Positions 2,562 to 53,391 of a stretch of 64,000 nucleotides of DNA are shown here, in pieces (within the stretch, counting starts at the first letter, position 1; each line of letters begins with the position of its first letter). The stretch covers positions 1 through 64,000 of the IMG/VR virus record IMGVR_UViG_3300009702_000021. One strand, written 5' to 3'. The DNA is from a virus. The notes beneath the pieces were generated by a model. It searched no databases and had not been told where the DNA came from. It saw only the letters and a list, made by a program, of their open reading frames with translations. A program made the translations under genes and the position numbers.

Positions 2562-3493
2562 TGGCTACGCAGTTCGTTTACGATATTGCCGCTGATTTCC
2601 CTGTGGGAAAAGTCAACTTGGTCAGGCTCAAGCAGGAGATCGAGGCCTCGTCTATCACCATTGCGCTAGGTGACATCGGCTCAGTAGGCGGGGTTCTGGC
2701 TGGCGACGTGCTCACAGGTGGGTCGCTGACTGTCACATTCAAGGCCGATCTCTCACCAACAGACAAGGCCACTCTTGACGGAGATACGGCTGCACCTGCT
2801 GGCGGGCTTATCGCCGCGCACGACAACACCCCGACCCCTAGCACCATGCCGAAGCTCGATGAAGAGGGGGTAACACTCTCGAAGCCTCAGCCGCAAGATG
2901 TTGGCTATGAGATGTGTGATCGTGACTTCAAGATCGTGACCTGCAAGGTGTCACAAGCAGCAGCAGTTGAGGACCTCAAGCAGGACCCAGTCACGCTGCG
3001 AGAGGTCGCCTGGACTGGTCCCGAGCTAAAGATCGTGGGCGTCTACAAGGACGCCGGACCCGGGGCGCTGGTCTCCTGTGTAGATCAGGCAGACGCAGAC
3101 TTGAACGGGATCCTCTCGGTGTTCGACTATAAGGCGTATGACCAGGCAGACGGCGTCACCATGATCCCGTACAACATCCGGTCAGGGTCTCTCGTATCAG
3201 ATCCTGCTATCGATGTCGCGGCTGTCCCGGCGGCGCGGTTCCAGCACCGCGCCTACCTCATAGCGGCTCCAGACCTGGGACAGCCCTACTTCGTGCGGAC
3301 GTTCGACGGCTATGTAGCTGGGCGCCCGAATGCGGGTGAGTTGAGTACAGAAAGTCCCACTGCGAAGAAGCTCGACCCGGCCCTGGTGCCTGGGGTATCG
3401 AACGTGTTGCGGCTCTACGTACACCACCCAGCAGGGCAGAGCAACTCACACATTTTGTGGCTGCTGACCTATCGTCCGTCGGGGACGTTCTGA
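2561..3493 (+). CDS. hypothetical virion protein
   Basis: GTG start overlapping the upstream stop; long ORF with GC3-biased codons. Confidence 0.6.
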   Translation: MATQFVYDIAADFPVGKVNLVRLKQEIEASSITIALGDIGSVGGVLAGDVLTGGSLTVTFKADLSPTDKATLDGDTAAPAGGLIAAHDNTPTPSTMPKLDEEGVTLSKPQPQDVGYEMCDRDFKIVTCKVSQAAAVEDLKQDPVTLREVAWTGPELKIVGVYKDAGPGALVSCVDQADADLNGILSVFDYKAYDQADGVTMIPYNIRSGSLVSDPAIDVAAVPAARFQHRAYLIAAPDLGQPYFVRTFDGYVAGRPNAGELSTESPTAKKLDPALVPGVSNVLRLYVHHPAGQSNSHILWLLTYRPSGTF

Positions 3494-3921
3494 TGCTCGA
3501 CCCGAATCGTCGCGCACGCTACTATGAAGCCAGACCTGAACTGCTCGAACGCATGAGGGCGCTTGGGTGGATCAACGGGTGCGGGTCAGGGTGGGCTGAC
3601 GTGCCTGACTTCATGTGGGAAGAAGACTGCGATGAGCATGACTTCGACTACACCGTAGGTGGAACTGAGTCAGACAGACTCGACACCGAGTGGCGCTTCT
3701 CAATACGTATGATCCAGCGGGTCAACGAGACCTACAGCTATTGGAATCCGATGCGGTTCTTCGCACGCATGATGGCCTGGGCCTACTATCGTGGCGTGAA
3801 GGCACTCGGTGAGTTGATCGGTGCTTGGTCTGACCGTGAACGCGGGCTGACCATGTCTGAGTTGAAACAGCTAGTGTCGGAAGCCGAGGCATCACGGGGC
3901 GAGGATTCACCGAACACCTAG
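3493..3921 (+). CDS. phospholipase A2-like protein (NGCG...CxxHDxxY)
   Basis: NGCGSG and CDEHDFDY motifs typical of prokaryotic/phage PLA2-like proteins; TGATG coupling. Confidence 0.5.
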   Translation: MLDPNRRARYYEARPELLERMRALGWINGCGSGWADVPDFMWEEDCDEHDFDYTVGGTESDRLDTEWRFSIRMIQRVNETYSYWNPMRFFARMMAWAYYRGVKALGELIGAWSDRERGLTMSELKQLVSEAEASRGEDSPNT

Positions 3922-8751: not shown

Positions 8752-11037
8752 ATGCCCCCGAGCAACCTGCTTCTCGCGTCCAAGATCGTCGTGGTCGAGG
8801 AGCCGCCCAGTATCCGCAACATCTCCGGGGTGCCGACCGCCATCGCTGCCTTCTCTGGGGTCACCGAGCGGGGTCCAGTCCGGGTCCCACAGTTCATCAC
8901 GAGCTTCGAGGAGTTCGTGTCGATCTTCGGCGGGTTCATCACGGGCTCGGACCTCCCGCTTGCGATCCAGGGAGCGTTCCAGAACGGGGCTACCGCGATC
9001 TGGGTGAGTCGTGTCACGCACTACACGGACATCAACGACGGGAATTCGACGACCGCCGTGAAGGGCACCCAGTCGATCCCTGACCGTGGAGGGGCTGCGG
9101 CAGCGGCGATCCTTAACTCGAGCGCTGGGCCTTTCCAGCTCGAGCCTGGTCAGCAGCTTGACGTGAACATCGACGGAGCGGGAACGGACTCGCTCACCTT
9201 CGCGGCGACGCCGGCTGAGGCCCTCTCGGGAAATACGGAACCGTTCTCGCTCGTCAACGGTGACACGCTGGTCTACCGGACCAACGAGTCACCTGAGTCG
9301 GCCGTGCTCGGGACCCTCCGCACGATCACCTTCCTGACGGCCGACTTCGTCTCGATCGGTGCCGCGACTGCCGAGGAGGTCTCGGCAGTCATCAACCGGG
9401 ACGGGATCGGCATCAGCGCCGAGGCGACCGGAGGGACGACGGTCACCATCCGGTCGGATGCTCGTGGGTCATCTGGGACCCTCGTCATCGATGCGTCCTC
9501 GACCTCGATTGCTGCCGGGAAGCTGAACATCACCTCCGGCACGATCAGCAGTGCAGGTCCGAACAACGTTGCCCTGATCGATGCCGTTACGGCTACCGAG
9601 ATCGCGGCCCTGCTCACTGCTCTCCCACTGAGCGCTGGAACGGCAACGGAGCCGACCGCCGGCACCTTGACCCTGACTGGCGTCACCACGGGCGTCACAG
9701 GCACGGTGGTGATCGAGGCGACTACGACGGCGCTCGGAATCTTCACAGGCGCACTGCCGATCACTCAGAACGGGACCAACGCCGCGGTCACGAACACGCT
9801 GACCGTGACCGGGCGGGATCCCGGGACATGGATCACCAGCTACTCGGTGGTGATCGAGCCTCCCACTTCGGGTGACGCGGACAGGTTCAACCTCCGCATC
9901 ACGCGGAATGGGGCGACGCAGGAGTCCTGGCCGAACCTGTCGATGGATCCCGTCGACGCCCGCTACGCTGAGGCGTTCCTGAATGCCAACTCAGGACTGG
10001 TCGACGCGACGGACCTGTTCAGTGGGGCTACGTCTCCGGCCAACCTGCCCGCCCTGGGAACCTACACCGCCTGGGCCAGCCAGGACGATGGCCTCACGGG
10101 GCTGGTGGACGCTGACTTCACCGGGAGCCAGGCCGGTGGGACGGGACTGTTCGCCTTCGACCTGGTCAACAACATCACACTCCTGGTGGTGCCGGGTCGG
10201 GCAACGTCGGCAGTCCAGAACGCGATGATCCAGTACTGCGAGGTCGAGCGCGTTGGATCGTGTTTCGCGATCCTGGACCCGCCGGAGAACCTCGACGAGC
10301 AGGCCATCAAGACCTACTTCGAGAGCACGGCAGCCCTCGCTGGGCTCTCAGAGTTCGGTGCCGCCTACTGGCCCAGGGTCGAGATCCTGAACCCCAGTAC
10401 GCTGATCTTCGGTGCCGCCGCGCGCCTGGTCATTCCTCCTGCGGGACACCTGATGGGCATGTACGCCCGGACGGATGCGAGCCAGCCCGGAGGCGTCTAC
10501 CAGGCTCCGGCTGGTGTCGAGGTCGGTCGCCTGTTCGGGGTTCTCGGATTCGAGACTGATGACGTCCTTGACGAGAGCAAGCGCGACGTGGTCTTCCCGA
10601 TCCCAGTTAACCCCATCACGACGATTGCCGGGAGTCCCAGGCACGTTGACGGCGCTCGGACGCTCAAGCGCGACGGCAACTTCCCGTCCGTGGCAGAGCG
10701 CCGCGGAGTGATCTTTATCGAGCAGAGCCTCAAGGCAGGTCTCCTGTTCGCAAAGCACCGGAACAACGACCGGCGCCTGCGGATGGAGGTCAAGCGGACC
10801 ATCGAGGCGTTCCTGCTGATCCAGTTCAACGACGGAGCATTCCGTGGTGACACGCCGGCCGAGTCGTTCTTCGTGGACGTCTCTGACGCCCTAAACCCCA
10901 TCGAAGAGGTCTTCGCTGGTCGTCTCAACGTCCGCATCGGCCTCGCTACTCAGAAGCCCGCCGAGTTCATCATCCTCACGTTCACGCAGGACACGCGTGC
11001 ACTCGAGGAGCGTCTCGCCGATCAGCTGGGTAGCTAG
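8752..11037 (+). CDS. contractile tail sheath protein
   Basis: AF.GVTERGPV..P.FITSF.EF...FG, YWPRV, VYQAPAG, GARTL and FFV...IGLA..KPAEFI sheath motifs. Confidence 0.95.
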   Translation: MPPSNLLLASKIVVVEEPPSIRNISGVPTAIAAFSGVTERGPVRVPQFITSFEEFVSIFGGFITGSDLPLAIQGAFQNGATAIWVSRVTHYTDINDGNSTTAVKGTQSIPDRGGAAAAAILNSSAGPFQLEPGQQLDVNIDGAGTDSLTFAATPAEALSGNTEPFSLVNGDTLVYRTNESPESAVLGTLRTITFLTADFVSIGAATAEEVSAVINRDGIGISAEATGGTTVTIRSDARGSSGTLVIDASSTSIAAGKLNITSGTISSAGPNNVALIDAVTATEIAALLTALPLSAGTATEPTAGTLTLTGVTTGVTGTVVIEATTTALGIFTGALPITQNGTNAAVTNTLTVTGRDPGTWITSYSVVIEPPTSGDADRFNLRITRNGATQESWPNLSMDPVDARYAEAFLNANSGLVDATDLFSGATSPANLPALGTYTAWASQDDGLTGLVDADFTGSQAGGTGLFAFDLVNNITLLVVPGRATSAVQNAMIQYCEVERVGSCFAILDPPENLDEQAIKTYFESTAALAGLSEFGAAYWPRVEILNPSTLIFGAAARLVIPPAGHLMGMYARTDASQPGGVYQAPAGVEVGRLFGVLGFETDDVLDESKRDVVFPIPVNPITTIAGSPRHVDGARTLKRDGNFPSVAERRGVIFIEQSLKAGLLFAKHRNNDRRLRMEVKRTIEAFLLIQFNDGAFRGDTPAESFFVDVSDALNPIEEVFAGRLNVRIGLATQKPAEFIILTFTQDTRALEERLADQLGS

Positions 11038-31815: not shown

Positions 31816-34550
31816 TCAAGGTCACGGTCTCGCCTGCCGGCACGGTCATCTTGGAGCCTACTTCCCAGGCCGACAAGAAGACCGTAAAGGACCTGCTATA
31901 CGTCGTTCGCCGGAAAGGTAAATGGGTCACGTTCTGGACCTACCTCGTAGACCTCCGTCGTGACGTACCGGCGGGACTGCTCCAGTGGCACCCAGCGGCA
32001 ACAGCCAGGATCCGAGCCTTGCTCCGTCAGGTCCGGGATCTAATCCGGGGAGACGATGAGAGGATTGCCGGGCAATTCAAGCCAGACCGGAGGCCCTACG
32101 ACTTCCAGATGCAGGCGATCCACGCTGGCCTGAAGGCCAAGCAGATACTTATCGCTGACGATACGGGCCTCGGGAAATTATCCCCAGTCGACACCCCCGT
32201 CCTGACTCCTCTGGGCTGGCGGGAGATCGGGTCAATCCGCAAGGGAGACAGGGTCATTGGATCGGACGGGAAGCCTACAGAGGTGACGGGAGTGTTCCCA
32301 CAGGGGGTCAAGCCAAGTTACCGGGTAACGTTCTCTGACGGGTCCAGCGCAGAGGCCGGACCAGAGCACCTCTGGGCGGTTGATTACTGGAGGGGAGGTC
32401 GTACCAAGTCTCGCATCGTTATAACTACTGATGATCTACGACTGCGTCCAATCAAGGATGGACTCGACCTCTCCAAGACCAGGCTCATGGTCCCCATGCT
32501 CTCTGGTCCGGTCGAGTTCGATAAGGGCCATCCCTTGCCTATCCCTCCATATGCAATGGGTGCGTTGATCGCTAATGGGGGGCTGACTTGTGGATCGGCT
32601 GTGCTTACCTACGGGACCAAAGACTGGGACGAGATTAGGAACCTGATCTATGAGGGATACGGCTACGAACCTATGGGGAAGATTCAGAGGTCAGCCAACA
32701 CAACACGAGCCAGCCTCCTCGGGGCGATAGTCGCCGTTCGCGATCTCAAACTGGATGTGAGAAGTCAGGAAAAGTACATTCCGACCTGCTACGCCACTGC
32801 ATCTCCGGTTGACAGACTGAAACTCCTGCGCGGGCTCATGGATGCAGACGGGTCGATCACCAAGAAAAGGAATCGAGTCACCTACCATACGATCTCTTAC
32901 GACCTAGCCCACGACGTGGCTGGGCTCGTGCAAGGACTTGGTGGGATTGGCAGTGTTCGACGCTATGACCGGACCCATGAGGGTAAGCCGGTCGAGTATC
33001 AGGTCAGGGTCAAGATGCCACATGGCATCAACCCGTTCTCACTTAGGCGAAAAGCAGACCGATATAACCCAGGACCCAAGGCTGGCCCCTGCCGAACGAT
33101 CAGGACGGTCGAGTACGTTCGTGAGGCTGAGTCGGTCTGCATTTCTGTAGCTGCCAGTGACTCGCTCTACGTGGTCAAGGACCATATCTTGACTCACAAC
33201 ACCATCGAGTGCCTAGGAATCATGCTGACGGCCTTTCGGGAACGGTCGATCAAGCGCGCAGTCCTGGTCGTCCCAGCCGGGCTCAAGCACCAGTGGGCCG
33301 AGGAGATCGAAGAGTTCGCGCTCGAGGCACCGGACCCGGTGATGATCGCCGTCTCGGGAAAGAACCCACGGCGCCGGAAGCAGCTATACAAGAAGCCATG
33401 GCGGGTCCTGATCATCAACCCAGAGCTAGTAAGGATCGATGAGGACAGCCTCAGGGAAGTGGCGAATGGTGTAGGCTTCGTAGCCCTCGACGAGGCATCC
33501 TGTATCCGCAACGAGGACTCGCAGATCGCTAGGGTCATGAAGCGCCTCTGGGCCTCGGCGATCTACAAGGTGGCCCTGACGGCTACTCCTGTCGAGAACC
33601 GGCTCGCGGACCTCTGGTCGATCATCCGCTGGGTAAGCCCGAAGGCGTTCCTGAGCCGGACCTACTTCGACCGCCACTACATCGTCTGGAGGAAGCTGAG
33701 GTTCAAGGTCAAGAAGCGTACGGGACGCACGGTCACGATTACCAAGGAGGAGCCCTTGCGGTACCGCAACCTCCGGGAGGTAGAGTCAAAGATCAGGCAC
33801 TGCTACATCAGGCGCCGCGTCAGCGAAGTCGGGAAGGAGCTACCCGAGCTTGTTGTCCAGTGGGACCAGCTGCTACTCCCGAAGCGTCAGCGCGCGATCT
33901 ACGACGCCGTCAAGGACAAGCTCGAGAAGAAGATCAAGGGCCTACGCGGTGTCGCCCTCCACGCGCCACTCCAGGCCCTAAGGCAGGCGTGTAACAGCAC
34001 CGCCCTAGTCGAGAAGGATCGCGGGCAGAAACACGCCTCAGTCAAGATCGATCGGCTCAGGGAGCTGTTGGAGACCGAGTTCACTGGCGAACAGGTGATC
34101 GTGTTCACCGACTACGAGCGGTTCGGCCGGATCCTCAAGCACGAGCTGAGGGCCTACCGACCCGTGACCTACACCGGGAAGATGAACCGTCGGGACCGCC
34201 AGCAGGCGATCGATGCATTCAGGCTCGGTGATCGTAGGATCCTGATCGGGACCAAGGCACTCGAGCGGGGTCATAACCTCCAGAATGCCGCGATCGTGGT
34301 GAACATCGACCTCCCGTTCAACCCGGCCTCGGTCAAGCAGCGCCTCGGCCGAGTACGCCGCCTCGGCTCCAAGCACCAGACGGTCCGGCTCTGGAACATG
34401 GTAGTCAACGACACCGTCGAGGAGCGACTGATCATGCGCTCGCTCTACGCGAAGCGGAAGCTGTTCGAAGGGATCTTCGAGTCGGACGAGCTGACCGACG
34501 CCGACCCCCTGGAGAGGATGGTCGGAGGTAAGCTGTGGGACCTCTTGTAG
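31812..34550 (+). CDS. SNF2-family helicase containing an intein
   Basis: LIADDTGLGK|T, LDEAS, ALTATPVEN and QRLGRVRRLG motifs. Confidence 0.93.
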   Translation: MIKVTVSPAGTVILEPTSQADKKTVKDLLYVVRRKGKWVTFWTYLVDLRRDVPAGLLQWHPAATARIRALLRQVRDLIRGDDERIAGQFKPDRRPYDFQMQAIHAGLKAKQILIADDTGLGKLSPVDTPVLTPLGWREIGSIRKGDRVIGSDGKPTEVTGVFPQGVKPSYRVTFSDGSSAEAGPEHLWAVDYWRGGRTKSRIVITTDDLRLRPIKDGLDLSKTRLMVPMLSGPVEFDKGHPLPIPPYAMGALIANGGLTCGSAVLTYGTKDWDEIRNLIYEGYGYEPMGKIQRSANTTRASLLGAIVAVRDLKLDVRSQEKYIPTCYATASPVDRLKLLRGLMDADGSITKKRNRVTYHTISYDLAHDVAGLVQGLGGIGSVRRYDRTHEGKPVEYQVRVKMPHGINPFSLRRKADRYNPGPKAGPCRTIRTVEYVREAESVCISVAASDSLYVVKDHILTHNTIECLGIMLTAFRERSIKRAVLVVPAGLKHQWAEEIEEFALEAPDPVMIAVSGKNPRRRKQLYKKPWRVLIINPELVRIDEDSLREVANGVGFVALDEASCIRNEDSQIARVMKRLWASAIYKVALTATPVENRLADLWSIIRWVSPKAFLSRTYFDRHYIVWRKLRFKVKKRTGRTVTITKEEPLRYRNLREVESKIRHCYIRRRVSEVGKELPELVVQWDQLLLPKRQRAIYDAVKDKLEKKIKGLRGVALHAPLQALRQACNSTALVEKDRGQKHASVKIDRLRELLETEFTGEQVIVFTDYERFGRILKHELRAYRPVTYTGKMNRRDRQQAIDAFRLGDRRILIGTKALERGHNLQNAAIVVNIDLPFNPASVKQRLGRVRRLGSKHQTVRLWNMVVNDTVEERLIMRSLYAKRKLFEGIFESDELTDADPLERMVGGKLWDLL
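32178..33200 (+). mobile_element. class 3 intein (341 aa) with a LAGLIDADG endonuclease, in the SNF2 P-loop
   Basis: Starts LSPVDTPVLTP.GW; EHLW; LRGLMDADG; VCISV; ends ILTHN|T. Confidence 0.92.
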
Positions 34551-35003: not shown

Positions 35004-38000
35004 ATGGGAAAGAAACGCACTTGGTTCCCACACTTCCACGTCCATGACGAGCACTCGATCAAGGACGGCTGCTCGACCGTCGAGACCTACGCCGACCTGG
35101 TAGTTGAGTCAGGCGGAGACTGCCTAGCGATCACGAATCACGGGCAGGCAGCCGGGTTCGCGCGCCAGTACTTCGCCTGCCGTGACCGAAAGATCAAGCC
35201 CGTCTTCGGCATGGAGGCCTACGTCAACGAGTGGAGGACTCGCCCGATCAAGAGGCTCCAGGAGGAGCTGAAGAAGGCCGAGAAGGCTGCCAAGAAGTCG
35301 CCAGCCAGGCTCTCACAGATCAAGGCCAAGCAGGAGTCCCTCAAGCGGTTCATTGCTGAGCGGTTCCGGCCAAGCCCACATGCGATCATCCTCGCTAAGA
35401 ACCGGGTCGGCTACCAGAACCTCGTTCGCATGAGCACGGACAGCTACCAGCACGGCTTCTACTATGTGCCGCGGACCGACACCAAGTTCCTCTCCGAGCA
35501 CCGCGAGGGGCTGATCTACAGCACAGCCTGCATCGGTGGCTACATCCCCAGGATGGCCCGGGTAGACTTCGCCGCTGCGTGCGAGGAGGCTCGTCGGCTC
35601 AAGGCGATCTTCGAGGACGGCGGAGGTGGCTTCTACGTCGAGCTGATGATCACCGAGTACGAAGCACAGCGTGAGACCAACGAGGTCATGATCCGGCTCG
35701 CCACCGAGATCGGCGCCAAGTGCATCCTGACCTGCGACGTCCACTACGCGAAGCCCGACGACGGGCAGGCGCAGAACGTCCTCCTGCTGATGCGGGACAA
35801 GAAGACGATAGCCGACCGGGAGGCCGGCGAGGGAGTCTGGCAGTTCGAGGCTAAGGACCTCTGGTGGAGGACGGTCCAGGACGTGGTCCAGTGCTGGAGG
35901 GAGAACCACTCGGACTACATGGACCGGAGCTGTTTCCAGGCTGCCCTCAAGAACACCCTTGCCCTGGCAGACGAGATCGAGGACGTCGAGTTCGATACGA
36001 GCCTCAAGCTACCTGGGGTCTTCAAGGAGCCAGATCACGACCTCAAGGAGCTGGTCAAGTCGGGCTTGCGGTACCGCAAGGAGCACGGGCAGCTAGCGCC
36101 GGGAGTCAAGCTCTCGGAGTACACCGATCGGATCAAGCGTGAACTATCGGTCATCAGCCCCAAGGGGTTCAGCGAGTACTTCCTGATCCTGCACGACGTC
36201 TGCCGGGCAGCCCGGGAGATGGGAGCCCGCATGGGCCCGGGCCGCGGTAGTGCCGGCGGATCCCTGACGGCCTACCTCTGTCGGATAACCGAGATTGATC
36301 CGCTCAGGTTCGGACTCCTGTTCGAGCGGTTCCTCGATGCCGGCCGCGATGACCCACCGGACATTGACCTCGATTTCTCCCCGGAACACCGAGACGGCAT
36401 CAAGGCCTATGTCGAGAAGGCCTACCCGGCAACTGCAACGATCGGGTCCAACGCTACATTCAAGCCGCGCGCCACGCTCCAGGACGTCGGCCGGGTCTTC
36501 GGGATCGACTACCGGGAGATGCAGCAGATAACCAAGCCCCTGGGTACCGAAGCTGATGACATGACGTGGGATGAAATCTTCGAGGCCTGGCCGGCCGTTG
36601 AGAGGTTTGCTGACGACCACCCGGAGGCGTGGAGCGTCGTCCGGGTCCTCCGGGGGCTCATCAGCCACCGCGGCAAGAATGCTGCCGGGATGCTCATCGC
36701 TCCGGCCTCAGCCCTCAACGACGTCCCGATGATCATGGAGACGGACAGCAAGGGCAACAAGATGACCGTGACAGCATTTGCGGACAGCCAGGGAGACGGA
36801 GTCGAGCACAAGGGGCGGGAGCTGACTCGACTCGGCTACCTAAAGGCCGACCTGCTCGGTGTCCGAAACCTGAACATCGCGCCGCAAGCAGTCGAGATCG
36901 TAGCGCGGGATACTGGGCAGGAGATCGACCTAGAGTCACTCTCCCTCGACGACGAGGAGACGCTCCAGACTGCGGCAACGGGAGACGTCCCAGGGGCCTT
37001 CCAGCTCGACACCAACACGACGCGACCGATCCTCCGTCACGTCGGGGTAGATAGCTTCGCTGACCTAGTCATGATTACTGCCCTCTGCCGACCAGGTCCC
37101 CTCAAGAATCAGATTCATCGTGAGTTCGCCAAACTCAAGCGCAGCGATGCATGGGAGGACGATGTACTGCCAGAACTAAGGGAGCTGCTCCGGGACAGCC
37201 GCGGACTCATGGTCCTCCAGGAGGACGTCATGTGGGTCGTGCAGGTAGTCAGCGGCATGTCGATGCAGGAGGCCAACATGCTCCGAAAGATCATGTCGAA
37301 GAAGCAACCTGAGGCGATGAAGCAGTGGAAGGAGAGGTTCGTTGAGGGAGGCAAGGAGGTAGGGCTCGCCACGGAAGAGGAGCTGGTCGAGCTGTGGGAC
37401 AAGATCAAGACCTTTGCCGGCTACGGGTTCAATAAATGTGTATGTTATAATCAGCCCATCACCGTGAGGCGGACTTGCGGTACCGCAAAGGAGACTGATC
37501 GTGGGCAAGAGTACACCAACGAAGTGCGCGTGTGGGGCGGTGTTCCCGAAGAAGAAGTTGTGGGTGGACCACAAGAGGACGTGCAGTCCACACAAGGAGA
37601 TAGTCAAACAGGCCCGGCTGTCCAACCTCGCCAAGGCCAATGCACCGGATGCGAGGGAGAGGGCGCGAAAGACTTTCCTGATGAGGGATTACGAGGTAAC
37701 CGAGGCCCAGAGAGATGCTCGAAGGAAGAATGCCCGCAAGCACCTCACGCCGTGGGCGCAGAGCGAGGATGGCAGGAGGGTGTCTTCCGAGACAGCCAAG
37801 AAAACGTCAGCGAGGAAGGATGTCAAGCAGGCGAGGGCGAAGCGCATGAAAGAGTGGGTGCGAAACAATCCAGGAGTGATCGCTCGGACAGGTCAGCGTG
37901 CAGCGGCACTGGCCATCGACGGAGCAGGGGAGCTGGAGTTAGCAGAACTTCTTCACAATCTGAATGTAGTCAGACAGGAAGTGGTAGAGGTCGTACCGGG

Positions 38001-39644
38001 AAAGTTCGGCCTGTTCGATCTATCTCTTCCGAGCCGAAGCGTATTGATCGAGGTGGACGGCTCAGAGCACTTCAATCAGGGTGGACGGGAGATGATCGCC
38101 GACTACGCCAAGGAGGACTGGGTCAGGAGCAAGGAAAACGAGCAGGGGTGGGGATTGATCAGGGTACAACTCACCAACGACCGCAGGCTAGTCAGGGAAG
38201 TGAAGATCGGACTCTTGCGAGCTATCAAGAAAATCAAACCGAGGGAGGTTCTATTCGTCGGGGATTGCTACGACAAGAGGAGGAGGCCCAAGAAGAGGAA
38301 ACGATCCCGATCGGCGAAGTAGCCGTCGGTGACCTCGTCCTCGCACAGGATGGAGACTGGGTCCGAGTCCTCGACGTCCATGACCACGGTCTCCAAGAGT
38401 GCGTGGAGGTAGTGCTTCCGACCGGCTCCGTGGTCTGCACCTGGGATCACCGTTTTCCTACCCCACAGGGAACCCTGACGCTGCACAAAATCATCAATAC
38501 CAAAACTCGGATCCTCACAAAGCAGCGCCTCGACACCATCTCAATTGACACCTGGCAGCTTCCGACCTCTGTCACTCCAGTTGGAGTTCGTCACACCGTT
38601 GATCTCGAGGTTGACCACCCGACTCACTGCTACTTCCTCGCCAACGGAGTCTGCACCCACAACAGCCACGCTACCGCCTACATGATCACTGCCTACCGTC
38701 AGCTCTACATGCTGACCCACCACACGGTCGAGTACTTCGCTGCCCTGCTGACTCACACGCCGCGGGGTAAGAAGACTGCCGGCGGCGGGGAGCTGGTGGT
38801 CGACTACATGCGAGCCGCGATGTCCCGGCGGATCACCCTGCTGGGTCCATGTGTTGTAGACGGAGCTATCGGTTTCGACGTCGATAAGTACGGTCGGATT
38901 CGCTACGGCCTCGGGCACGTCAAGGGAGTCGGAGGCGCAGCCCAACTGGTAATGGCTGCGAGTCCGTTCGAGTCCCTCGAGGATATGTTCGACCGGATCG
39001 AACGACGCCGGGTCAACTCGCGCGTGTTCAAGCAGCTGATCTTCAGCGGCGCCCTGGACAAGCTCGACTTCAACCGACACGCCGGCAAGGGTGACCCGAT
39101 CCCGGAGTGGATCGGAGTCGAGCGCAGAAATGGGATCCTAGCCCGCTATGAGCAGCTGAGGAAGGCGAAGGAGACACCAGATGTATTCTCGACATCGGTC
39201 CTCCGGGAGAAGGAACGTGAGGTGCTAGGACTCCCGCTGTCCTGGTGGTCCTCCGACACGGTCCAGGAACTGCGCGACCAGGAGGGGCTGGAGACGATCG
39301 ACTATCACCTCCGCAGTGACCTCAGCAAGCTAGAGATCATCGCCGAGGTCAGCAGAGCTAGGACGCACCGGACCAAGAAGGGGACGACGATGGCGTTCCT
39401 GACGCTGGCGGACGAGACCGGGACCCTGCCGAACGTCACGATCTGGCCCGAGCAGTGGTCAACATACAGGCGGATGCTCTCCCAGGGTCGGATGGCGATC
39501 ATCCGCCTCCGGCGCAAGGAGAATCACAACCGCGAGTTCGGTGAGTGGTCCTACTACCTCGAGGACAAGTGGAGCGAGCCCGTCGAGAGCGTGGCCCGCG
39601 CACTACGGCGTGATACCGAAGGCGTGGAATCGGATGACGAATAG
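35004..39644 (+). CDS. dnaE: DNA polymerase III alpha subunit containing an intein
   Basis: PHP motif HFHVHDEHSIKDG; GPGRGSAGGSL; LLFERFL; PPDIDLDF; YGFNK|SHA; C-terminal OB fold. Confidence 0.96.
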   Translation: MGKKRTWFPHFHVHDEHSIKDGCSTVETYADLVVESGGDCLAITNHGQAAGFARQYFACRDRKIKPVFGMEAYVNEWRTRPIKRLQEELKKAEKAAKKSPARLSQIKAKQESLKRFIAERFRPSPHAIILAKNRVGYQNLVRMSTDSYQHGFYYVPRTDTKFLSEHREGLIYSTACIGGYIPRMARVDFAAACEEARRLKAIFEDGGGGFYVELMITEYEAQRETNEVMIRLATEIGAKCILTCDVHYAKPDDGQAQNVLLLMRDKKTIADREAGEGVWQFEAKDLWWRTVQDVVQCWRENHSDYMDRSCFQAALKNTLALADEIEDVEFDTSLKLPGVFKEPDHDLKELVKSGLRYRKEHGQLAPGVKLSEYTDRIKRELSVISPKGFSEYFLILHDVCRAAREMGARMGPGRGSAGGSLTAYLCRITEIDPLRFGLLFERFLDAGRDDPPDIDLDFSPEHRDGIKAYVEKAYPATATIGSNATFKPRATLQDVGRVFGIDYREMQQITKPLGTEADDMTWDEIFEAWPAVERFADDHPEAWSVVRVLRGLISHRGKNAAGMLIAPASALNDVPMIMETDSKGNKMTVTAFADSQGDGVEHKGRELTRLGYLKADLLGVRNLNIAPQAVEIVARDTGQEIDLESLSLDDEETLQTAATGDVPGAFQLDTNTTRPILRHVGVDSFADLVMITALCRPGPLKNQIHREFAKLKRSDAWEDDVLPELRELLRDSRGLMVLQEDVMWVVQVVSGMSMQEANMLRKIMSKKQPEAMKQWKERFVEGGKEVGLATEEELVELWDKIKTFAGYGFNKCVCYNQPITVRRTCGTAKETDRGQEYTNEVRVWGGVPEEEVVGGPQEDVQSTQGDSQTGPAVQPRQGQCTGCEGEGAKDFPDEGLRGNRGPERCSKEECPQAPHAVGAERGWQEGVFRDSQENVSEEGCQAGEGEAHERVGAKQSRSDRSDRSACSGTGHRRSRGAGVSRTSSQSECSQTGSGRGRTGKVRPVRSISSEPKRIDRGGRLRALQSGWTGDDRRLRQGGLGQEQGKRAGVGIDQGTTHQRPQASQGSEDRTLASYQENQTEGGSIRRGLLRQEEEAQEEETIPIGEVAVGDLVLAQDGDWVRVLDVHDHGLQECVEVVLPTGSVVCTWDHRFPTPQGTLTLHKIINTKTRILTKQRLDTISIDTWQLPTSVTPVGVRHTVDLEVDHPTHCYFLANGVCTHNSHATAYMITAYRQLYMLTHHTVEYFAALLTHTPRGKKTAGGGELVVDYMRAAMSRRITLLGPCVVDGAIGFDVDKYGRIRYGLGHVKGVGGAAQLVMAASPFESLEDMFDRIERRRVNSRVFKQLIFSGALDKLDFNRHAGKGDPIPEWIGVERRNGILARYEQLRKAKETPDVFSTSVLREKEREVLGLPLSWWSSDTVQELRDQEGLETIDYHLRSDLSKLEIIAEVSRARTHRTKKGTTMAFLTLADETGTLPNVTIWPEQWSTYRRMLSQGRMAIIRLRRKENHNREFGEWSYYLEDKWSEPVESVARALRRDTEGVESDDE
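37437..38663 (+). mobile_element. DnaE intein (409 aa) carrying an out-of-frame nested endonuclease gene
   Basis: FNK|CVCY...CTWDHRF...TVDLEVDHPTHCYFLANGVCTHN|SH. Confidence 0.92.
37501..38322 (+). CDS. nested DUF559/Vsr-like PD-(D/E)xK homing endonuclease (+1 frame within the intein)
   Basis: SD AAGGAG 37488-37493 then GTG; N-terminal CxC..H...C; FDL....SVLIEVDGSEHF...D..K.....GW.LIRV. Confidence 0.85.
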   Translation: MGKSTPTKCACGAVFPKKKLWVDHKRTCSPHKEIVKQARLSNLAKANAPDARERARKTFLMRDYEVTEAQRDARRKNARKHLTPWAQSEDGRRVSSETAKKTSARKDVKQARAKRMKEWVRNNPGVIARTGQRAAALAIDGAGELELAELLHNLNVVRQEVVEVVPGKFGLFDLSLPSRSVLIEVDGSEHFNQGGREMIADYAKEDWVRSKENEQGWGLIRVQLTNDRRLVREVKIGLLRAIKKIKPREVLFVGDCYDKRRRPKKRKRSRSAK

Positions 39645-49159: not shown

Positions 49160-49320
49160 CGCTCCCGACTCGTGCGTATCTAGAGGCGGCAGGGGAGCCC
49201 CAGCACGAGGCCGGAACCCAAGCTTGGAGACCAAGACCTAGGAGACAGATTCAGGTCCGTGGTGGGCCGGAGAATGAATGACAGAGGGATGTGCTGGCCG
49301 ACCCCAGCGTGGAGACACCC

Positions 49321-52300
49321 ATGAGCAAGAGCAGGTTGACCCCGGTCCTGAAGGGCCTCAACCCCATAGAGAAGTCGAGAGTTGAGACCTGGGTGCCCAC
49401 GGACCGGGAGGGCCTGGTCGTTCGGGTCAGGGATCCCGGACCCGGTGAGGGGATCCCGGTCACCCTGATCGAGGACCTGACTGAGGTAGAGGTCCACGAC
49501 GAGACATCCGGTGCGTGGATCCGGGGCCGCGCCGCAGCACAGACTACCCCTGGCTGGCCCGTCACGCTGATCAAGGCCGTCGAGAGGATCCGCGCCGAGG
49601 CCGAGCGAGCCATGGTCTGCCCGGAGTGCGACAGCTACCTGATCCTCCGGGACCGGGACCTAGAGTGCGCGGAGTGCGGACTGTGCATGAACCCCGACTG
49701 CCCGAACTGCGGAGGCCGGACGGCCTTGCGGTACCGCAAGCTCAAGGGCCAGCCAGCCGACATCCCTCCGGCATTCTGGGCGTGCCGGGATGATGCCTGC
49801 GCCTCTGCGCTCCTGTGGGGCCAGCGAGACCCTCAACCACAGCAGGTCCCGGATAAGCCGTGGACGGAGCACGGGGAGAGGGAGGAGCAGATCGCGGAGG
49901 CGCGTGAGGTCCTAGATCACCCGCTGGTCTCGGAAGCCAATGCGGTCAAGAAGCTGCGAGTGATCCTCGACGAGAACCCCGACCGGGTCCTGCCACTGGT
50001 CCTCGGGGAGACCACGCCCTCAGGCAAGAAGACGGTCCAAGCCAGGCTCGAGGAAAAGCTGGCTGAGGAGCGCCGGCAGGGCAAGCCACGACGCCGGGTC
50101 AAGAGGCGTGCCCAGAAGGCACGCCGGGTCCAGCCCGGGGAGAAGCGTGAGGGTATCAAGTACTACGGCCCCGAGGACTCATTGCCTGGTCCGTCCGGGA
50201 CGTCCCTGGTCGAGGTCCCTGAGGACGATGAGACCTCCGTGGCGTCGTCTGTCTACCCACACCACCGGCTAGCTCATGCAGCGCTGAACCCGATCCAGTC
50301 GCGCGTCCTCGATGTCTATGACCGGAACTGCAACGTGGTGATCGCCGCCAGCACCAGTGCTGGTAAGACCCTCAGCGCTGAGATGGTCATGGGTGACGCC
50401 CTCGACCGCGGCGCCAAAGCGATCTTCCTCGCGCCGCTCCGGGCCGTCAGCCAGGAGAAGTACGACGACTGGTGCGATGAGGACCACCCGTGGTCAGAAC
50501 TAGGGGTCGAAATCTGCACGGGTGACTACACGATGAGCCAGGCGAAGCGGAAGGCCCTGCGCCGCGCCGACGTGATCGTGATGACATCTGAGATGCTCGA
50601 CTCCAAGACGCGTCGGATGGGGAGCGACGAGAACGGCTGGCTGATGGAGACACTCTGCGTGGTCGGCTCCTCCGGGATTGCACTTGCGGACGGGACTACG
50701 AAGACAATCAAGGAGATCGTGGAGGAGCGTCTCGAGATTGAGGTCTTAGCTTTCAATCACTCGATTGGGAAAGTCGTCAAGCGCAGGGTGACGGGATGGC
50801 ACAAGAACCGGTTAGGAGACAGGAATCTCGTTGAGATCACTTGCGGTACCGCAAGTCTGACCTGCACCGAAGATCATGAGATATACCAGCGAGGCGTGGG
50901 GTATACTGCTGCCAGGAAGCTCACATCTTCGAGCACGCTGGAGGTGCTGGATGCCGGTCAAGAAGGGACACAGATTCGGCGCGAAGCGCACGGTCGAGCT
51001 GACGGACATAGAGCGATCGGTTGTCATAGGGACACTGCTCGGAGACAGCTCACTATCGTGGGGAACAGGGAACCGGGTAAGTGCCAGAATGCGTGTGAGG
51101 AACAGCCTCGCACAGCGGGAGTTCGTGTTGTGGAAGTACGAGATGCTTCGGCGTCTTGTGCGGACTCCTCCGAAGGAGGCGCCGAATCGTGGATACAAGC
51201 GCGACGGAATGGCATTCGGATTTTCCACGAGGTCCTTCGGAGAGGACCTACTCAAGATCAAACAATTGATCGAACCCGGGAAGACGGTGACGCGCGATCT
51301 GCTGGACTTGTTGACGGAGCCAGAGGGACTGGCCGCGTGGTACATGGACGACGGATCGAGGTCGAGGGGGGCGAGTCTCGTACTACATACACAGTCAATG
51401 ACTGCCGACGAGGTGCGGTTGACGTCGCGTTGGCTCAGGGAGGAGTGGAATATCGAGACCAGGCCGATGTCGGTCAAGAACAGAGCCTACGAGGTGCTAC
51501 GTATTCCGGCGGAATCAGGCGAGCGGTTTATGGATATCGTGAGACCATTCGTGACCGGGATAACATGCATGGAGCACAAGGTATTGCACAGGAGAGAGTC
51601 GCTGTTCTGCACGATGTGCGGCACAGGGTTCGAGGCAACGAGGCGTCAGATCCAGCGCGAGACGAGACTTGTCACCTGCCGGTCCGAGGACTGCATGAGG
51701 GCCCTAGCCCGTATGATTCAGAGACTGAACGACGCGAGGATCGGTTCGTCTACGACCTAACCGTCGAGGGTGAGCACAACTACTTCGCCGAGGGAGTCCT
51801 GGTCCACAACTGCGTGGTCGTTGACGAGGCTCACCTGCTAACGATGAAGGACCGCGGCGACGCCTTGGAGTGCGGACTCGAGCGATTCACTCGGTTCAAC
51901 CCCCACGCTAGGATCGTCCTCCTCAGCGCGACCATGCCGAACGTCCATGAGCTAGGGTCCTGGCTGACCCGCCTGAACGGGAAGCCGACCCGCCTTGTCC
52001 AGAGCGCGTGGCGTCCCACCAAGCTGACCGTTCACCCCGTGCCGTACGACCACCAGACGTCGGGTTACAGCTACCACAAGAACGAGGACTCCAAGCGGGC
52101 TAAGGCGATCGAGCTGCTCCAGAAGTACAGCGAGGACAAGTGGATCGTCTTCGTCCACACGAAGAAGATGGGCCACGCCCTGCTGGCCCAGCTACGGGAC
52201 CGGCACGAGCCAGCCGAATTCCATAGCGCTGACCTCACCCGAGACAACAGGCTCCGGCTCGAGGACCGGTTCAGGCACGGAGACCTCAGGGTCGTCGTAG

Positions 52301-53391
52301 CCACTTCGACCCTGGCCTACGGCATCAACATGCCGGCGCGACGGGTCATGGTCGTCGGAATCCACCGCGGCCTGGAGAAGGTCGCACCGCTAGACGTACT
52401 CCAGATGTTCGGGCGGGCCGGGCGAGTGGGCCTCGACCCTGAAGGCGATGCCTACCTACTGGTCCCGGAGACCCGTGATCCACGCGAGTTCGACCGGACC
52501 GTCGAGGCCTACTCGAAGCCAGGTCTGATCGAGAGCCAGCTGAACGAACTGCACACGCTGGCCTTCCACTTGACGGCGGAGGTAGCCGAGGGGTCAGTGA
52601 GGACGACCGCGGATGCAGTTGCCTGGCACGCCCGTTCGCTCGCGGCACAGCAGGGCCGGGGTCTTGACCAGGAAGGGAAGGTGCTCAGCGCCTCCCGGGT
52701 AATGCATGACCTCTGCCAGTGCGGCGTCCTCAAGGAGGAGGACGGGAGCTATGAGGCGACACAGCTCGGTCACGTCGCGAGCCGACTCTACTACAGTCCG
52801 TTCGACGTAGCTGACTGGGCGTCCAACTTCCGCTGGGCCGCGGAGCGGGATAAGCACCACAACGATGACGTGGTCGCGTGGGCGCTCGGGAACGTCCGGT
52901 CGGCCTATTCCAAGAGCTACTTGCCGAAGGAACACGCTGGTGACATGGGAGACCTCGAGTGGCGCCTAGGACAGGTCGGAGTGGACCGGGCCTCCAACCT
53001 CCCGCCCGCTTGCCTGGCTTTCCGTGGGATGATCGAGGGGACCAAGTACAGGGCGATGTCGTCCTATCAGCGCCAGCTAGAGTACGACGCCGACAGGATC
53101 ATGCAGGCGATCACCATGATCGACGCTCGGGTGCTCAAGTCGCTCGGGAAGACCTACTGTGACGGCCTGGGTATGCGACTTCGCTACGGGTGCTCCTGGG
53201 AGGAGGCCGACCTGTGTCACATCCCCGGGGTAGGCTCCCGCCGCGCACGGCAACTGGCTGCCGCGGGAGTCAGTGGGGTAATGGACGTCCTGGAGAATCG
53301 CAAGAAGGTGGTCGACGCACTCGGGAGCAAGATCGCGCAGAGCGTGATCCGCGGGGCTAAGGAGGTTGCCAGGAAGCGTGGAGCGCGTTGA
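49321..53391 (+). CDS. Ski2/Hel308-like SF2 helicase with N-terminal Zn ribbons and an intein
   Basis: LNPIQ, ASTSAGKT, VVVDEAH, LSAT, ATSTLAYGINMPAR, QMFGRAGR and a C-terminal HhH; exact start uncertain. Confidence 0.92.
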   Translation: MSKSRLTPVLKGLNPIEKSRVETWVPTDREGLVVRVRDPGPGEGIPVTLIEDLTEVEVHDETSGAWIRGRAAAQTTPGWPVTLIKAVERIRAEAERAMVCPECDSYLILRDRDLECAECGLCMNPDCPNCGGRTALRYRKLKGQPADIPPAFWACRDDACASALLWGQRDPQPQQVPDKPWTEHGEREEQIAEAREVLDHPLVSEANAVKKLRVILDENPDRVLPLVLGETTPSGKKTVQARLEEKLAEERRQGKPRRRVKRRAQKARRVQPGEKREGIKYYGPEDSLPGPSGTSLVEVPEDDETSVASSVYPHHRLAHAALNPIQSRVLDVYDRNCNVVIAASTSAGKTLSAEMVMGDALDRGAKAIFLAPLRAVSQEKYDDWCDEDHPWSELGVEICTGDYTMSQAKRKALRRADVIVMTSEMLDSKTRRMGSDENGWLMETLCVVGSSGIALADGTTKTIKEIVEERLEIEVLAFNHSIGKVVKRRVTGWHKNRLGDRNLVEITCGTASLTCTEDHEIYQRGVGYTAARKLTSSSTLEVLDAGQEGTQIRREAHGRADGHRAIGCHRDTARRQLTIVGNREPGKCQNACEEQPRTAGVRVVEVRDASASCADSSEGGAESWIQARRNGIRIFHEVLRRGPTQDQTIDRTREDGDARSAGLVDGARGTGRVVHGRRIEVEGGESRTTYTVNDCRRGAVDVALAQGGVEYRDQADVGQEQSLRGATYSGGIRRAVYGYRETIRDRDNMHGAQGIAQERVAVLHDVRHRVRGNEASDPARDETCHLPVRGLHEGPSPYDSETERREDRFVYDLTVEGEHNYFAEGVLVHNCVVVDEAHLLTMKDRGDALECGLERFTRFNPHARIVLLSATMPNVHELGSWLTRLNGKPTRLVQSAWRPTKLTVHPVPYDHQTSGYSYHKNEDSKRAKAIELLQKYSEDKWIVFVHTKKMGHALLAQLRDRHEPAEFHSADLTRDNRLRLEDRFRHGDLRVVVATSTLAYGINMPARRVMVVGIHRGLEKVAPLDVLQMFGRAGRVGLDPEGDAYLLVPETRDPREFDRTVEAYSKPGLIESQLNELHTLAFHLTAEVAEGSVRTTADAVAWHARSLAAQQGRGLDQEGKVLSASRVMHDLCQCGVLKEEDGSYEATQLGHVASRLYYSPFDVADWASNFRWAAERDKHHNDDVVAWALGNVRSAYSKSYLPKEHAGDMGDLEWRLGQVGVDRASNLPPACLAFRGMIEGTKYRAMSSYQRQLEYDADRIMQAITMIDARVLKSLGKTYCDGLGMRLRYGCSWEEADLCHIPGVGSRRARQLAAAGVSGVMDVLENRKKVVDALGSKIAQSVIRGAKEVARKRGAR
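50656..51810 (+). mobile_element. intein (385 aa) before Walker B, carrying an out-of-frame nested endonuclease gene
   Basis: L|CVVGSS...CTEDHEI...VYDLTVEGEHNYFAEGVLVHN|C. Confidence 0.92.
50951..51760 (+). CDS. nested LAGLIDADG homing endonuclease (+1 frame within the intein)
   Basis: SD GGAGGT 50940-50945 then ATG; IGTLLGDSS and LAAWYMDDGS motifs; C-terminal CxxC...CxxxxC. Confidence 0.88.
   Translation: MPVKKGHRFGAKRTVELTDIERSVVIGTLLGDSSLSWGTGNRVSARMRVRNSLAQREFVLWKYEMLRRLVRTPPKEAPNRGYKRDGMAFGFSTRSFGEDLLKIKQLIEPGKTVTRDLLDLLTEPEGLAAWYMDDGSRSRGASLVLHTQSMTADEVRLTSRWLREEWNIETRPMSVKNRAYEVLRIPAESGERFMDIVRPFVTGITCMEHKVLHRRESLFCTMCGTGFEATRRQIQRETRLVTCRSEDCMRALARMIQRLNDARIGSSTT

Follow-up and report, generated by a model that had tools for sequence, protein, structure and literature searches.

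A phage Ski2-like helicase intein with a LAGLIDADG nuclease gene in the overlapping +1 frame

Inteins whose homing endonuclease is encoded out of frame with their splicing domains have already been described, and the element considered here belongs with them: an intein in the gene for a Ski2-like helicase, found in the first 64,000 nucleotides of the virus record IMGVR_UViG_3300009702_000021 of IMG/VR (the window, by which that whole analysed stretch is meant throughout). The record is a metagenome assembly of 83,007 bases with a CheckV completeness estimate of 45%. The concept is in print in two preprints, one of 2025 by Gosselin and coworkers and one of 2026 by Phillips and coworkers, both citing Gorbalenya 1998; thus, the novelty implied by an earlier note on this DNA, which was made from the letters alone, does not stand.

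In the later preprint, Phillips, DeSimone and Gogarten (bioRxiv 10.64898/2026.09.14.751524) describe a cyanobacterial dnaX intein with a LAGLIDADG nuclease in an overlapping '+2' open reading frame (ORF), report purifying selection in the nuclease frame alongside relaxed selection in the intein frame, and propose the secondary invasion of a mini-intein. As far as that account goes, the helicase intein resembles it in the out-of-frame LAGLIDADG nuclease, the Shine-Dalgarno-like motifs ahead of the start and the frame-dependent selection. It differs in host and offset, a phage Ski2-like helicase and +1 in place of cyanobacterial dnaX and '+2', and its nuclease is of the LAGLIDADG_2 type with a cysteine-rich tail ending in block F, a comparison that sets the two nucleases side by side by description. 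Gosselin, Arsenault and Gogarten (bioRxiv 10.1101/2025.01.02.630785), in the portion of their text that bears on the matter, describe 'non-canonical' actinobacteriophage inteins whose endonuclease is read from a different frame or from the opposite strand, in genes for DNA polymerase, a minor capsid protein, terminase and thymidylate synthase. Their layouts comprise an anti-sense LAGLIDADG, an anti-sense VSR-like and a same-strand endonuclease VII-like nuclease (frame 3) as well as an in-frame HNH nuclease, and the origin proposed is that a free-standing endonuclease gene invaded an intein. These inteins share with the present one a nuclease lying between the splicing blocks in a frame unlike that of the extein and an in-frame reading without recognisable structure; a same-strand +1 LAGLIDADG_2 nuclease in a helicase is, however, absent from the four layouts set out in that portion.

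Three further systems delimit the case. The 'fractured genes' of Dassa et al. 2009 (PMC2677866), as presented in the part of that paper concerning them, have inteins split in two with a free-standing endonuclease gene lodged between the parts, and hence likewise an independently translated endonuclease gene at the intein's usual endonuclease position. There, however, the host gene and intein are split into two ORFs and trans-splicing is required, whereas here the intein frame crosses the nuclease gene without a stop, so that a single precursor is encoded. Canonical LAGLIDADG inteins, for example, one in a RecD2-like helicase discussed below, have the same splicing fold with the nuclease between blocks B and F, and the nuclease family itself is the same in 19 of 80 related loci; in them, the intein polypeptide includes the nuclease as one of its domains, in contrast to the separate polypeptide from an overlapping frame seen here. 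Finally, Arsenault et al. 2025 (PMC11855218) describe, in the section concerned, the ShiLan insertion, a hidden out-of-frame HNH endonuclease in a phage methylase. This insert too is open in the host frame, with the nuclease in another frame, where it starts independently and stops just as the insert ends, but the insert has no splicing domains according to that section, and its nuclease is HNH.

Beyond these related works, the exact sub-type, an intein with an out-of-frame LAGLIDADG nuclease in a helicase, was not met in the literature searched, and phage FoX3, whose helicase is taken up below, is not named in the literature matches examined. The present case contributes statistical proof that this copy avoids stops, shows one and the same +1 geometry across three host gene families, supplies a cultured-phage example with another offset and indicates that the nearest relatives have the layout frequently.

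The helicase intein and the gene nested in it

The locus is probably to be explained as a mobile class 1 intein inserted in motif II of a phage Ski2-like helicase, with its nuclease encoded as a separate +1 gene over the middle of the intein. The layout as such is genuine dual coding, kept by selection. A single ORF on the + strand, 49291-53391, encodes a helicase of 1366 residues in which Pfam models recognise DEAD/DEAH, Helicase_C, a helix-hairpin-helix (HHH) tail and Intein_splicing. Its parts are as follows:

49291 to 50655, + strand: N-extein, with the DEAD domain at 333-440 (Pfam), terminating in ...NGWLMETL (intein-less relatives aligned)
50656 to 51810, + strand: class 1 intein of 385 residues, Cys1 to Asn385, in the helicase frame with 0 stops (Pfam Intein_splicing)
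50656 to 50943, + strand: N-terminal splicing lobe, residues ~1-96, with block A CVVGSS and block B TEDH (71-74)
50940 to 50945, + strand: Shine-Dalgarno-like GGAGGT, 5 nucleotides before the nuclease ATG
50944 to 51720, + strand: intein-frame linker of ~259 residues, hydrophilic, with no Pfam domain; the DNA of the nuclease gene read one base earlier
50951 to 51760, + strand: predicted homing endonuclease gene in the +1 frame, 269 residues and TAA (translation, Pfam)
51014 to 51529, + strand: two-motif LAGLIDADG_2 (I-SceI-like) catalytic core, PF03161 positions 1-168 of 168 at 97.5 bits (six-frame search)
51566 to 51694, + strand: cysteine-rich nuclease tail, with Cys206, CxxC at 220/223, Cys243 and Cys248
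51721 to 51810, + strand: C-terminal splicing lobe, blocks F and G, ...VYDLTVEGEHNYFAEGVLVHN (PF14890 model 126-155)
51811 to 53391, + strand: C-extein, with Cys+1 of CVVVDEAH (helicase motif II) first, then Helicase_C and HHH

When excised, the 385-residue intein matches the PF14890 model from end to end (residues 8-385 against positions 1-155 of 155; 43 bits with a cut-off of 35.8), the C-terminal lobe by itself reaching 30.6 bits in the six-frame search. This full-model match is stretched over residues 8-385, and therefore a long insert parts the two splicing lobes. The set of class 1 splicing residues is complete: Cys1, TEDH at 71-74, VYDLTVEG at 365-372, VLVHN at 381-385 and Cys+1. In an alignment with four related inteins (A2), C1, T71, E72, D73, H74, H384 and N385 are invariant and the conservation of the N-terminal lobe extends to about residue 86. 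The boundaries follow from intein-less viral relatives (L002, L003 and L004, with C-exteins 38-44% identical to this one), which run through the site as ...S-(F)L(K/Y)DVGT(I/V)VFDESH without the 385 residues; the insert can thus be placed exactly between ...METL and CVVVDEAH, four residues ahead of DEAH in motif II. By profile, residues and insertion site, 50656-51810 is a class 1 intein, for which splicing activity is predicted. Residues ~97-355, between blocks B and F, give no family match and are rich in R, G, A, E and D (146 of the 269 residues read across the nuclease, with a mean hydropathy of -0.99), which agrees with the filler that the earlier note had seen in this place.

The +1 frame over the same DNA offers a different picture. 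Its product of 269 residues matches the whole of PF03161, LAGLIDADG_2 (1-168 of 168; E 2.5e-27; 96.3 bits with a cut-off of 25), and residues 16-201 match the I-SceI chains of the PDB (E about 7e-7 to 1e-6). Both motifs are present, IGTLLGDSS with Asp32 and LAAWYMDDGS with Asp133/Asp134, and these aspartates we take, from I-SceI, to be the catalytic residues. They are among the eight columns, L30, G31, D32, K111, A128, D133, D134 and G135, that are invariant when the nuclease is aligned with 24 of its 28 database relatives (25 sequences). The closest nuclease relative is 35% identical; such relatives are called as separate Met-started proteins of ~200-300 residues, and the length of the N-terminus obtained from the ATG at 50951 resembles theirs. 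The tail carries Cys206, Cys220, Cys223, Cys243 and Cys248, and is probably a zinc ribbon: two relatives, P0004 and P0014, have comparable CxxC...C tails, as do, in repeated form, the nuclease ORFs of the five +1 relatives described below, one of which (L062) has in its tail a weak match to DUF2116, a 'probable treble clef'. The TAA at 51758-51760 falls within the block F codons, at intein residue 368, and hence the first 40 nucleotides of the C-terminal splicing lobe double as code for the last residues of the nuclease and its stop. By sequence, the 269-residue product is a complete LAGLIDADG_2 homing endonuclease of the I-SceI type, with fold and cleavage predicted. The two-motif protein, the C-terminal cysteine cluster, the GGAGGT-5 nt-ATG start and the stop in block F had all been proposed in the earlier note and are borne out. 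GGAGG with a spacer also precedes the starts of long ORFs elsewhere in the window, at 8752, 23344 and 35004.

Selection on the two frames

Across the intein span, stops number 0 in the helicase frame, 5 in +1 and 21 in +2; the five of the +1 frame are four before 50876 and the nuclease ORF's own, and this frame is open over 50861-51757 jointly with that of the intein. The composition by codon position separates the two. For the guanine plus cytosine content at third positions (GC3), the nuclease frame gives 0.73, close to the 0.82-0.83 of the exteins, and the intein frame 0.48, so that the middle of the intein is coding-like only in the nuclease frame; read in the intein frame, the three positions of the linker give 0.73/0.53/0.48, unlike the coding frames of this genome. 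An intein frame of this kind would be expected to contain stops. When the nuclease codons are permuted synonymously, with the nuclease protein and codon usage kept, a mean of 6.87 stops arises in the intein frame over the nuclease against the 0 observed, and just 6 of 20000 shuffles reach 0. The trace is visible in the codons themselves: none of the 71 codons standing before codons that start with AA, AG or GA ends in T, compared with 27 of 197 elsewhere (Fisher p 3e-4). The third frame, with 17 stops over the nuclease, is at the shuffle level. Thus, selection keeps the intein frame free of stops in this copy; the dual coding claimed earlier is real, and the layout is therefore not the product of indel errors. 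Selection for a more hydrophilic linker, over and beyond stop avoidance, was also considered and set aside: the trend is the same in five of five loci, with z just -0.4 to -3.2.

The same architecture recurs in DNA from other viruses. A profile-guided scan of viral contigs with the five aligned inteins gave 217 confirmed loci, from which the best 80 were taken and all six frames searched with a profile of the nuclease alignment. Matches were obtained in 24 loci, 19 of them having the nuclease in frame with the intein (at most 16 distinct, as L027/L028/L029 are identical and so are L032/L033) and five having it in the +1 frame; the remaining 56 have no LAGLIDADG_2-like match, and since many of the loci cover only part of an intein, the ratio of 5 to 19 is not to be read as a frequency. 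The five are:

L013 and L014: +1 LAGLIDADG_2 in UvrD-like helicases, with insertion at DE|CQD
L015, L062 and L078: +1 LAGLIDADG_2 in T4-type terminase large subunits

In L013, L014, L015, L062 and L078, respectively, the intein frame has 0, 0, 1, 0 and 0 stops where 23.3, 10.7, 16.0, 15.2 and 18.6 are expected, with 0 of 5000 shuffles as low in each. The nuclease stop lies inside block F in L013, L014, L062 and L078, just as in the Ski2-like helicase. Compared with one another, relatives are 69, 62, 64 and 43% identical in amino acids when read in the nuclease frame and 45, 40, 38 and 20% when read in the intein frame, and nucleotide differences concentrate at position 3 of the nuclease codons, from which it follows that purifying selection acts on the nuclease frame and leaves the linker free apart from stops. 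For the copy in the window, for which no close relative with DNA was found, purifying selection on the nuclease is accordingly judged from these relatives.

A cultured virus provides a variant of the theme. The gp40 of Xanthomonas phage FoX3 (MT161383, L011) contains a related intein of 314 residues (2729-3670) inserted at DE|CHH, and nested in it, at 2839-3597, is a LAGLIDADG ORF of 252 residues in the +2 frame. Against an expectation of 3.2, the intein frame contains no stop, a result matched by 157 of 20000 shuffles. The record calls gp40 a 'putative DNA helicase', and neither the intein nor the nested ORF is annotated. Thus, apart from FoX3 (+2), the offset is +1 in all six same-strand cases with DNA.

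Within the window itself, the earlier note had pointed to a first case of this layout in DnaE, and of that claim a part holds. The DnaE ORF, 35004-39644, does contain a nested +1 ORF of 273 residues at 37501-38322, with GC3 0.71 in the nested frame, and across it the DnaE frame is free of stops where 8.4 would be expected, as in none of 10000 shuffles; from Pfam, the nested ORF draws just a weak match, to PvuRts1I-like_N and below the cut-off, so that it is a putative nuclease gene at most. The accompanying statement that the three class 3 inteins have in-frame nucleases was checked in part, and LAGLIDADG_3 matches do lie in frame in three long ORFs, at 32817, 42148 and 60026.

These observations bear directly on the suspicion that an ordinary in-frame intein nuclease has been displaced here by two compensating sequencing or assembly indels. 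Such a suspicion draws on the presence of the same nuclease family in frame in the 19 of 80 related viral loci, and on the nature of the record, a metagenome assembly for which the comparison was by contigs and not by reads. An error, however, would not clear about seven expected stops from the frame that it had made, and the +1 layout with stop avoidance is found again in five other contigs and, as a nested ORF, in the DnaE gene of this very record. The contig of a second assembler, from a subsurface-metagenome run, spans 50500-52000 at depth 15 with 0 differences and 0 gaps, though this is a contig-level comparison with a run that may be the source of this DNA and hence is not independent. 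Close homologues with the nuclease in frame, together with indels at both ends of this copy, had been named in the earlier note as what would overturn its claim; what was found instead is that the 19 in-frame loci are distant, and they do not tell against the layout because stop avoidance excludes indel errors in this copy. The artefact is therefore close to refuted.

The position of the nuclease start invites another alternative, namely, that a programmed +1 ribosome shift in the helicase frame yields a fusion of the N-extein and N-terminal lobe with the nuclease. A Shine-Dalgarno-like sequence upstream stimulates the +1 shift in prfB; here, both frames are open over 50861-51757 with GGAGGT inside this stretch, and the shared +1 offset of the six cases other than FoX3 would be in keeping with such a device. 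Against this, no in-frame stop or known shift site follows GGAGGT, where the intein frame reads L-E-V-L-D-A-G, and no prfB-like +1 shift site is seen in the sequence around it. An ATG, moreover, stands at the proper spacing from GGAGGT, related nucleases are called as proteins of their own that begin with Met, and in FoX3 the nuclease lies in the other offset. Recoding is consequently a highly improbable account of this locus.

Recurrence and origin of the layout

Protein data extend the distribution well beyond the loci with DNA. A search with the 385-residue intein against 1.84 billion cluster representatives returned 755 proteins at E up to 1e-3. The top foreign match (P0032), known from the protein alone, is a helicase of 1044 residues that shares the domain make-up and has its intein at the corresponding site (K|CLVVDEAH), the identity to the present intein being 31% across all 385 residues. 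Where the present linker has GRVVHGRRI, that of P0032 has SRVVHGRWF, and this equals WYMDDG of the nuclease read one base early. A pattern for this shifted motif print, built from the linkers of P0032 and the window, was applied to the 149 best foreign representatives: it is present in 33 of them (mean 1.4 and maximum 5 in 200 shuffles), the motif occurs in frame in 25, and the pattern for a +2 reading is found in none of the 149. Among the 33 bearing the print, 31 match Intein_splicing and none gives an in-frame LAGLIDADG_2 match; among the host proteins, UvrD-like helicases predominate (16), followed by DEAD/Helicase_C helicases (4-5) and a terminase (1). The recurring class invisible to annotation that the earlier note had surmised thus finds support both in these 33 of 149 representatives and in the five +1 nucleases among the 80 viral loci. 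This suggests that the layout is common, not rare, among phage helicase and terminase inteins. The nuclease stays unannotated because gene callers and domain searches see just a helicase with an oversized and seemingly nuclease-less intein.

How such composites came about was approached with two quick trees. In that of the nuclease core, restricted to domain matches with E up to 1e-5, the six +1 nucleases share one half with 25 of the 28 separately called LAGLIDADG_2 proteins, and FoX3 and 17 of the 19 in-frame intein nucleases fall in the other half. In that of the N-terminal lobe, poorly resolved on 96 columns and leaving out 3 of the 149 proteins with an N-lobe match shorter than 55 residues, the +1 label clusters, requiring 17 changes against a shuffled mean of 30.8 (0 of 500 shuffles as low). 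These patterns fit a course, proposed from sequence relationships, in which a free-standing nuclease gene entered an intein and the composite then spread, whether from one origin or from several. A single clade of the +1 nucleases, or of the +1 inteins, is not supported by these trees.

A bolder proposal, possible but doubtful, is that the +1 LAGLIDADG_2/zinc-ribbon inteins are one old lineage that moves as a unit among genes for P-loop ATPases, those of the Ski2-like and UvrD-like helicases and of the terminase large subunit, and that their geometry is functional. The fixed arrangement, with the nuclease start just after the N-terminal lobe, the +1 offset and the stop in block F, may then be functional and not accidental, and could couple translation of the nuclease to ribosome traffic on the host gene. 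In its favour stand the +1 offset of the six cases other than FoX3, the nuclease stop within block F in the window and four relatives, the clustering of the +1 label and the grouping of the +1 nucleases with separately called genes, away from 17 of the 19 in-frame ones. Two results weigh against a single lineage: the deep split of the nuclease tree is unsupported (2 by the Shimodaira-Hasegawa-like approximate likelihood ratio test), and on the N-lobe tree the +1 label is not one clade, as well-supported branches force at least 3 changes. If the single lineage were true, in-frame LAGLIDADG_2 inteins would derive from, or yield, the +1 forms by indels, and the layout would be a visible trace of a 'splicing first, nuclease later' origin of inteins.

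Other features of these loci may be recorded alongside. The RecD2-like helicase of L047 (202-4092) has an intein with an in-frame LAGLIDADG_2 domain; a LAGLIDADG_3 match farther downstream, near the end of that stretch, probably belongs to a second intein. The helicase family of the window is a hot spot for mobile elements. Among its metagenome relatives, the intein of L096 sits at DE|C...SN|CHLL and includes an in-frame segment in which C2H2-like motifs abound, a mini-intein occupies LAWG|C...HN|C in L097 and L098, and in L094 and L095 the gene is broken after ...WGINI, with a separate ORF next in L095. A repeated palindrome, finally, has a copy in the intein:

50841 to 50854, no strand assigned: palindrome TTGCGGTACCGCAA, one of 25 window copies, within the N-terminal lobe

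At up to 1 mismatch, the 25 matches in the window compare with 0.01 expected, further copies lying, for example, at 37475, 49726, 53503 and 59709. The intein copy coincides with four residues, TCGT, that are absent from the four aligned related inteins, and it seems to have been acquired after the intein's arrival or inserted with it.

A proposed homing cycle and its significance

The locus can be fitted into the following scheme. Ribosomes in the helicase frame would produce a precursor with a hydrophilic and probably unfolded linker of ~260 residues between its splicing lobes, and from this precursor the intein would splice by the class 1 route (Cys1, Cys+1 and cyclisation of Asn385), restoring ...ETL-CVVVDEAH. 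Other ribosomes would initiate at the GGAGGT-ATG at 50951 to give the 269-residue nuclease; this would cut the intein-less helicase genes of co-infecting relatives, and repair would copy in the whole element. Selection would accordingly act on the protein sequence in the nuclease frame and on almost nothing except stop codons in the intein frame. Because a scan of the + strand ahead of the nuclease found no sigma-70-like promoter, translation from the helicase messenger RNA is the simplest reading.

Several points weigh against this picture of an active element. Expression, splicing and cleavage are predictions for both products, and so, in particular, is splicing across a linker of 260 residues. 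The missing promoter and the nature of the start signal belong here as well, with about half of the 41 sites of GGAGG, spacer and start in the window not being gene starts. No RNA runs containing this stretch were found, the agreement of the second assembler's contig lacks independence as said above, and no close relative of this copy with DNA was found. To these may be added the single TGA in the intein frame of L015, at 2339-2341, after which the frame continues to block G and the C-extein; this copy may be broken, or the TGA may reflect an error or a split form.

Some of these same points could be read as signs of a decaying element, in which the intein splices and the nested nuclease is no longer expressed or active, its open frame being a recent relic passed on by vertical inheritance alone. 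The searches gave no close intein-bearing or intein-free allele that would show recent movement: a DNA search of the phage collection with 50400-52100 and a scan of viral contigs with the nuclease protein returned no match, and scans of viral and metagenome contigs with P0032 returned more distant helicases alone and not P0032's own locus. There is, in addition, neither RNA evidence of expression nor a promoter-like site, and stages of this kind are predicted by the homing-cycle model, as outlined in the part of Gosselin et al. (bioRxiv 10.1101/2025.01.02.630785) that treats it. A relic, however, would sit poorly with the intact frame of 269 codons, the full-length family match and the retention of all eight invariant columns; the GC3 of the nuclease is typical of coding sequence, a Shine-Dalgarno-like sequence and ATG stand where the relatives start, and the nuclease frame of those relatives is under purifying selection. 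Decay is hence an unlikely explanation, and the mobile intein with a separate +1 nuclease gene is retained as the preferred one.

For the inteins of phages, this has a practical consequence: in surveys, no 'mini-intein with a linker' should be called until the other frames have been translated as well. The layout is likewise of use to models of how inteins acquire their nucleases, and the nested genes are of use as a source of I-SceI-type enzymes with new specificities.

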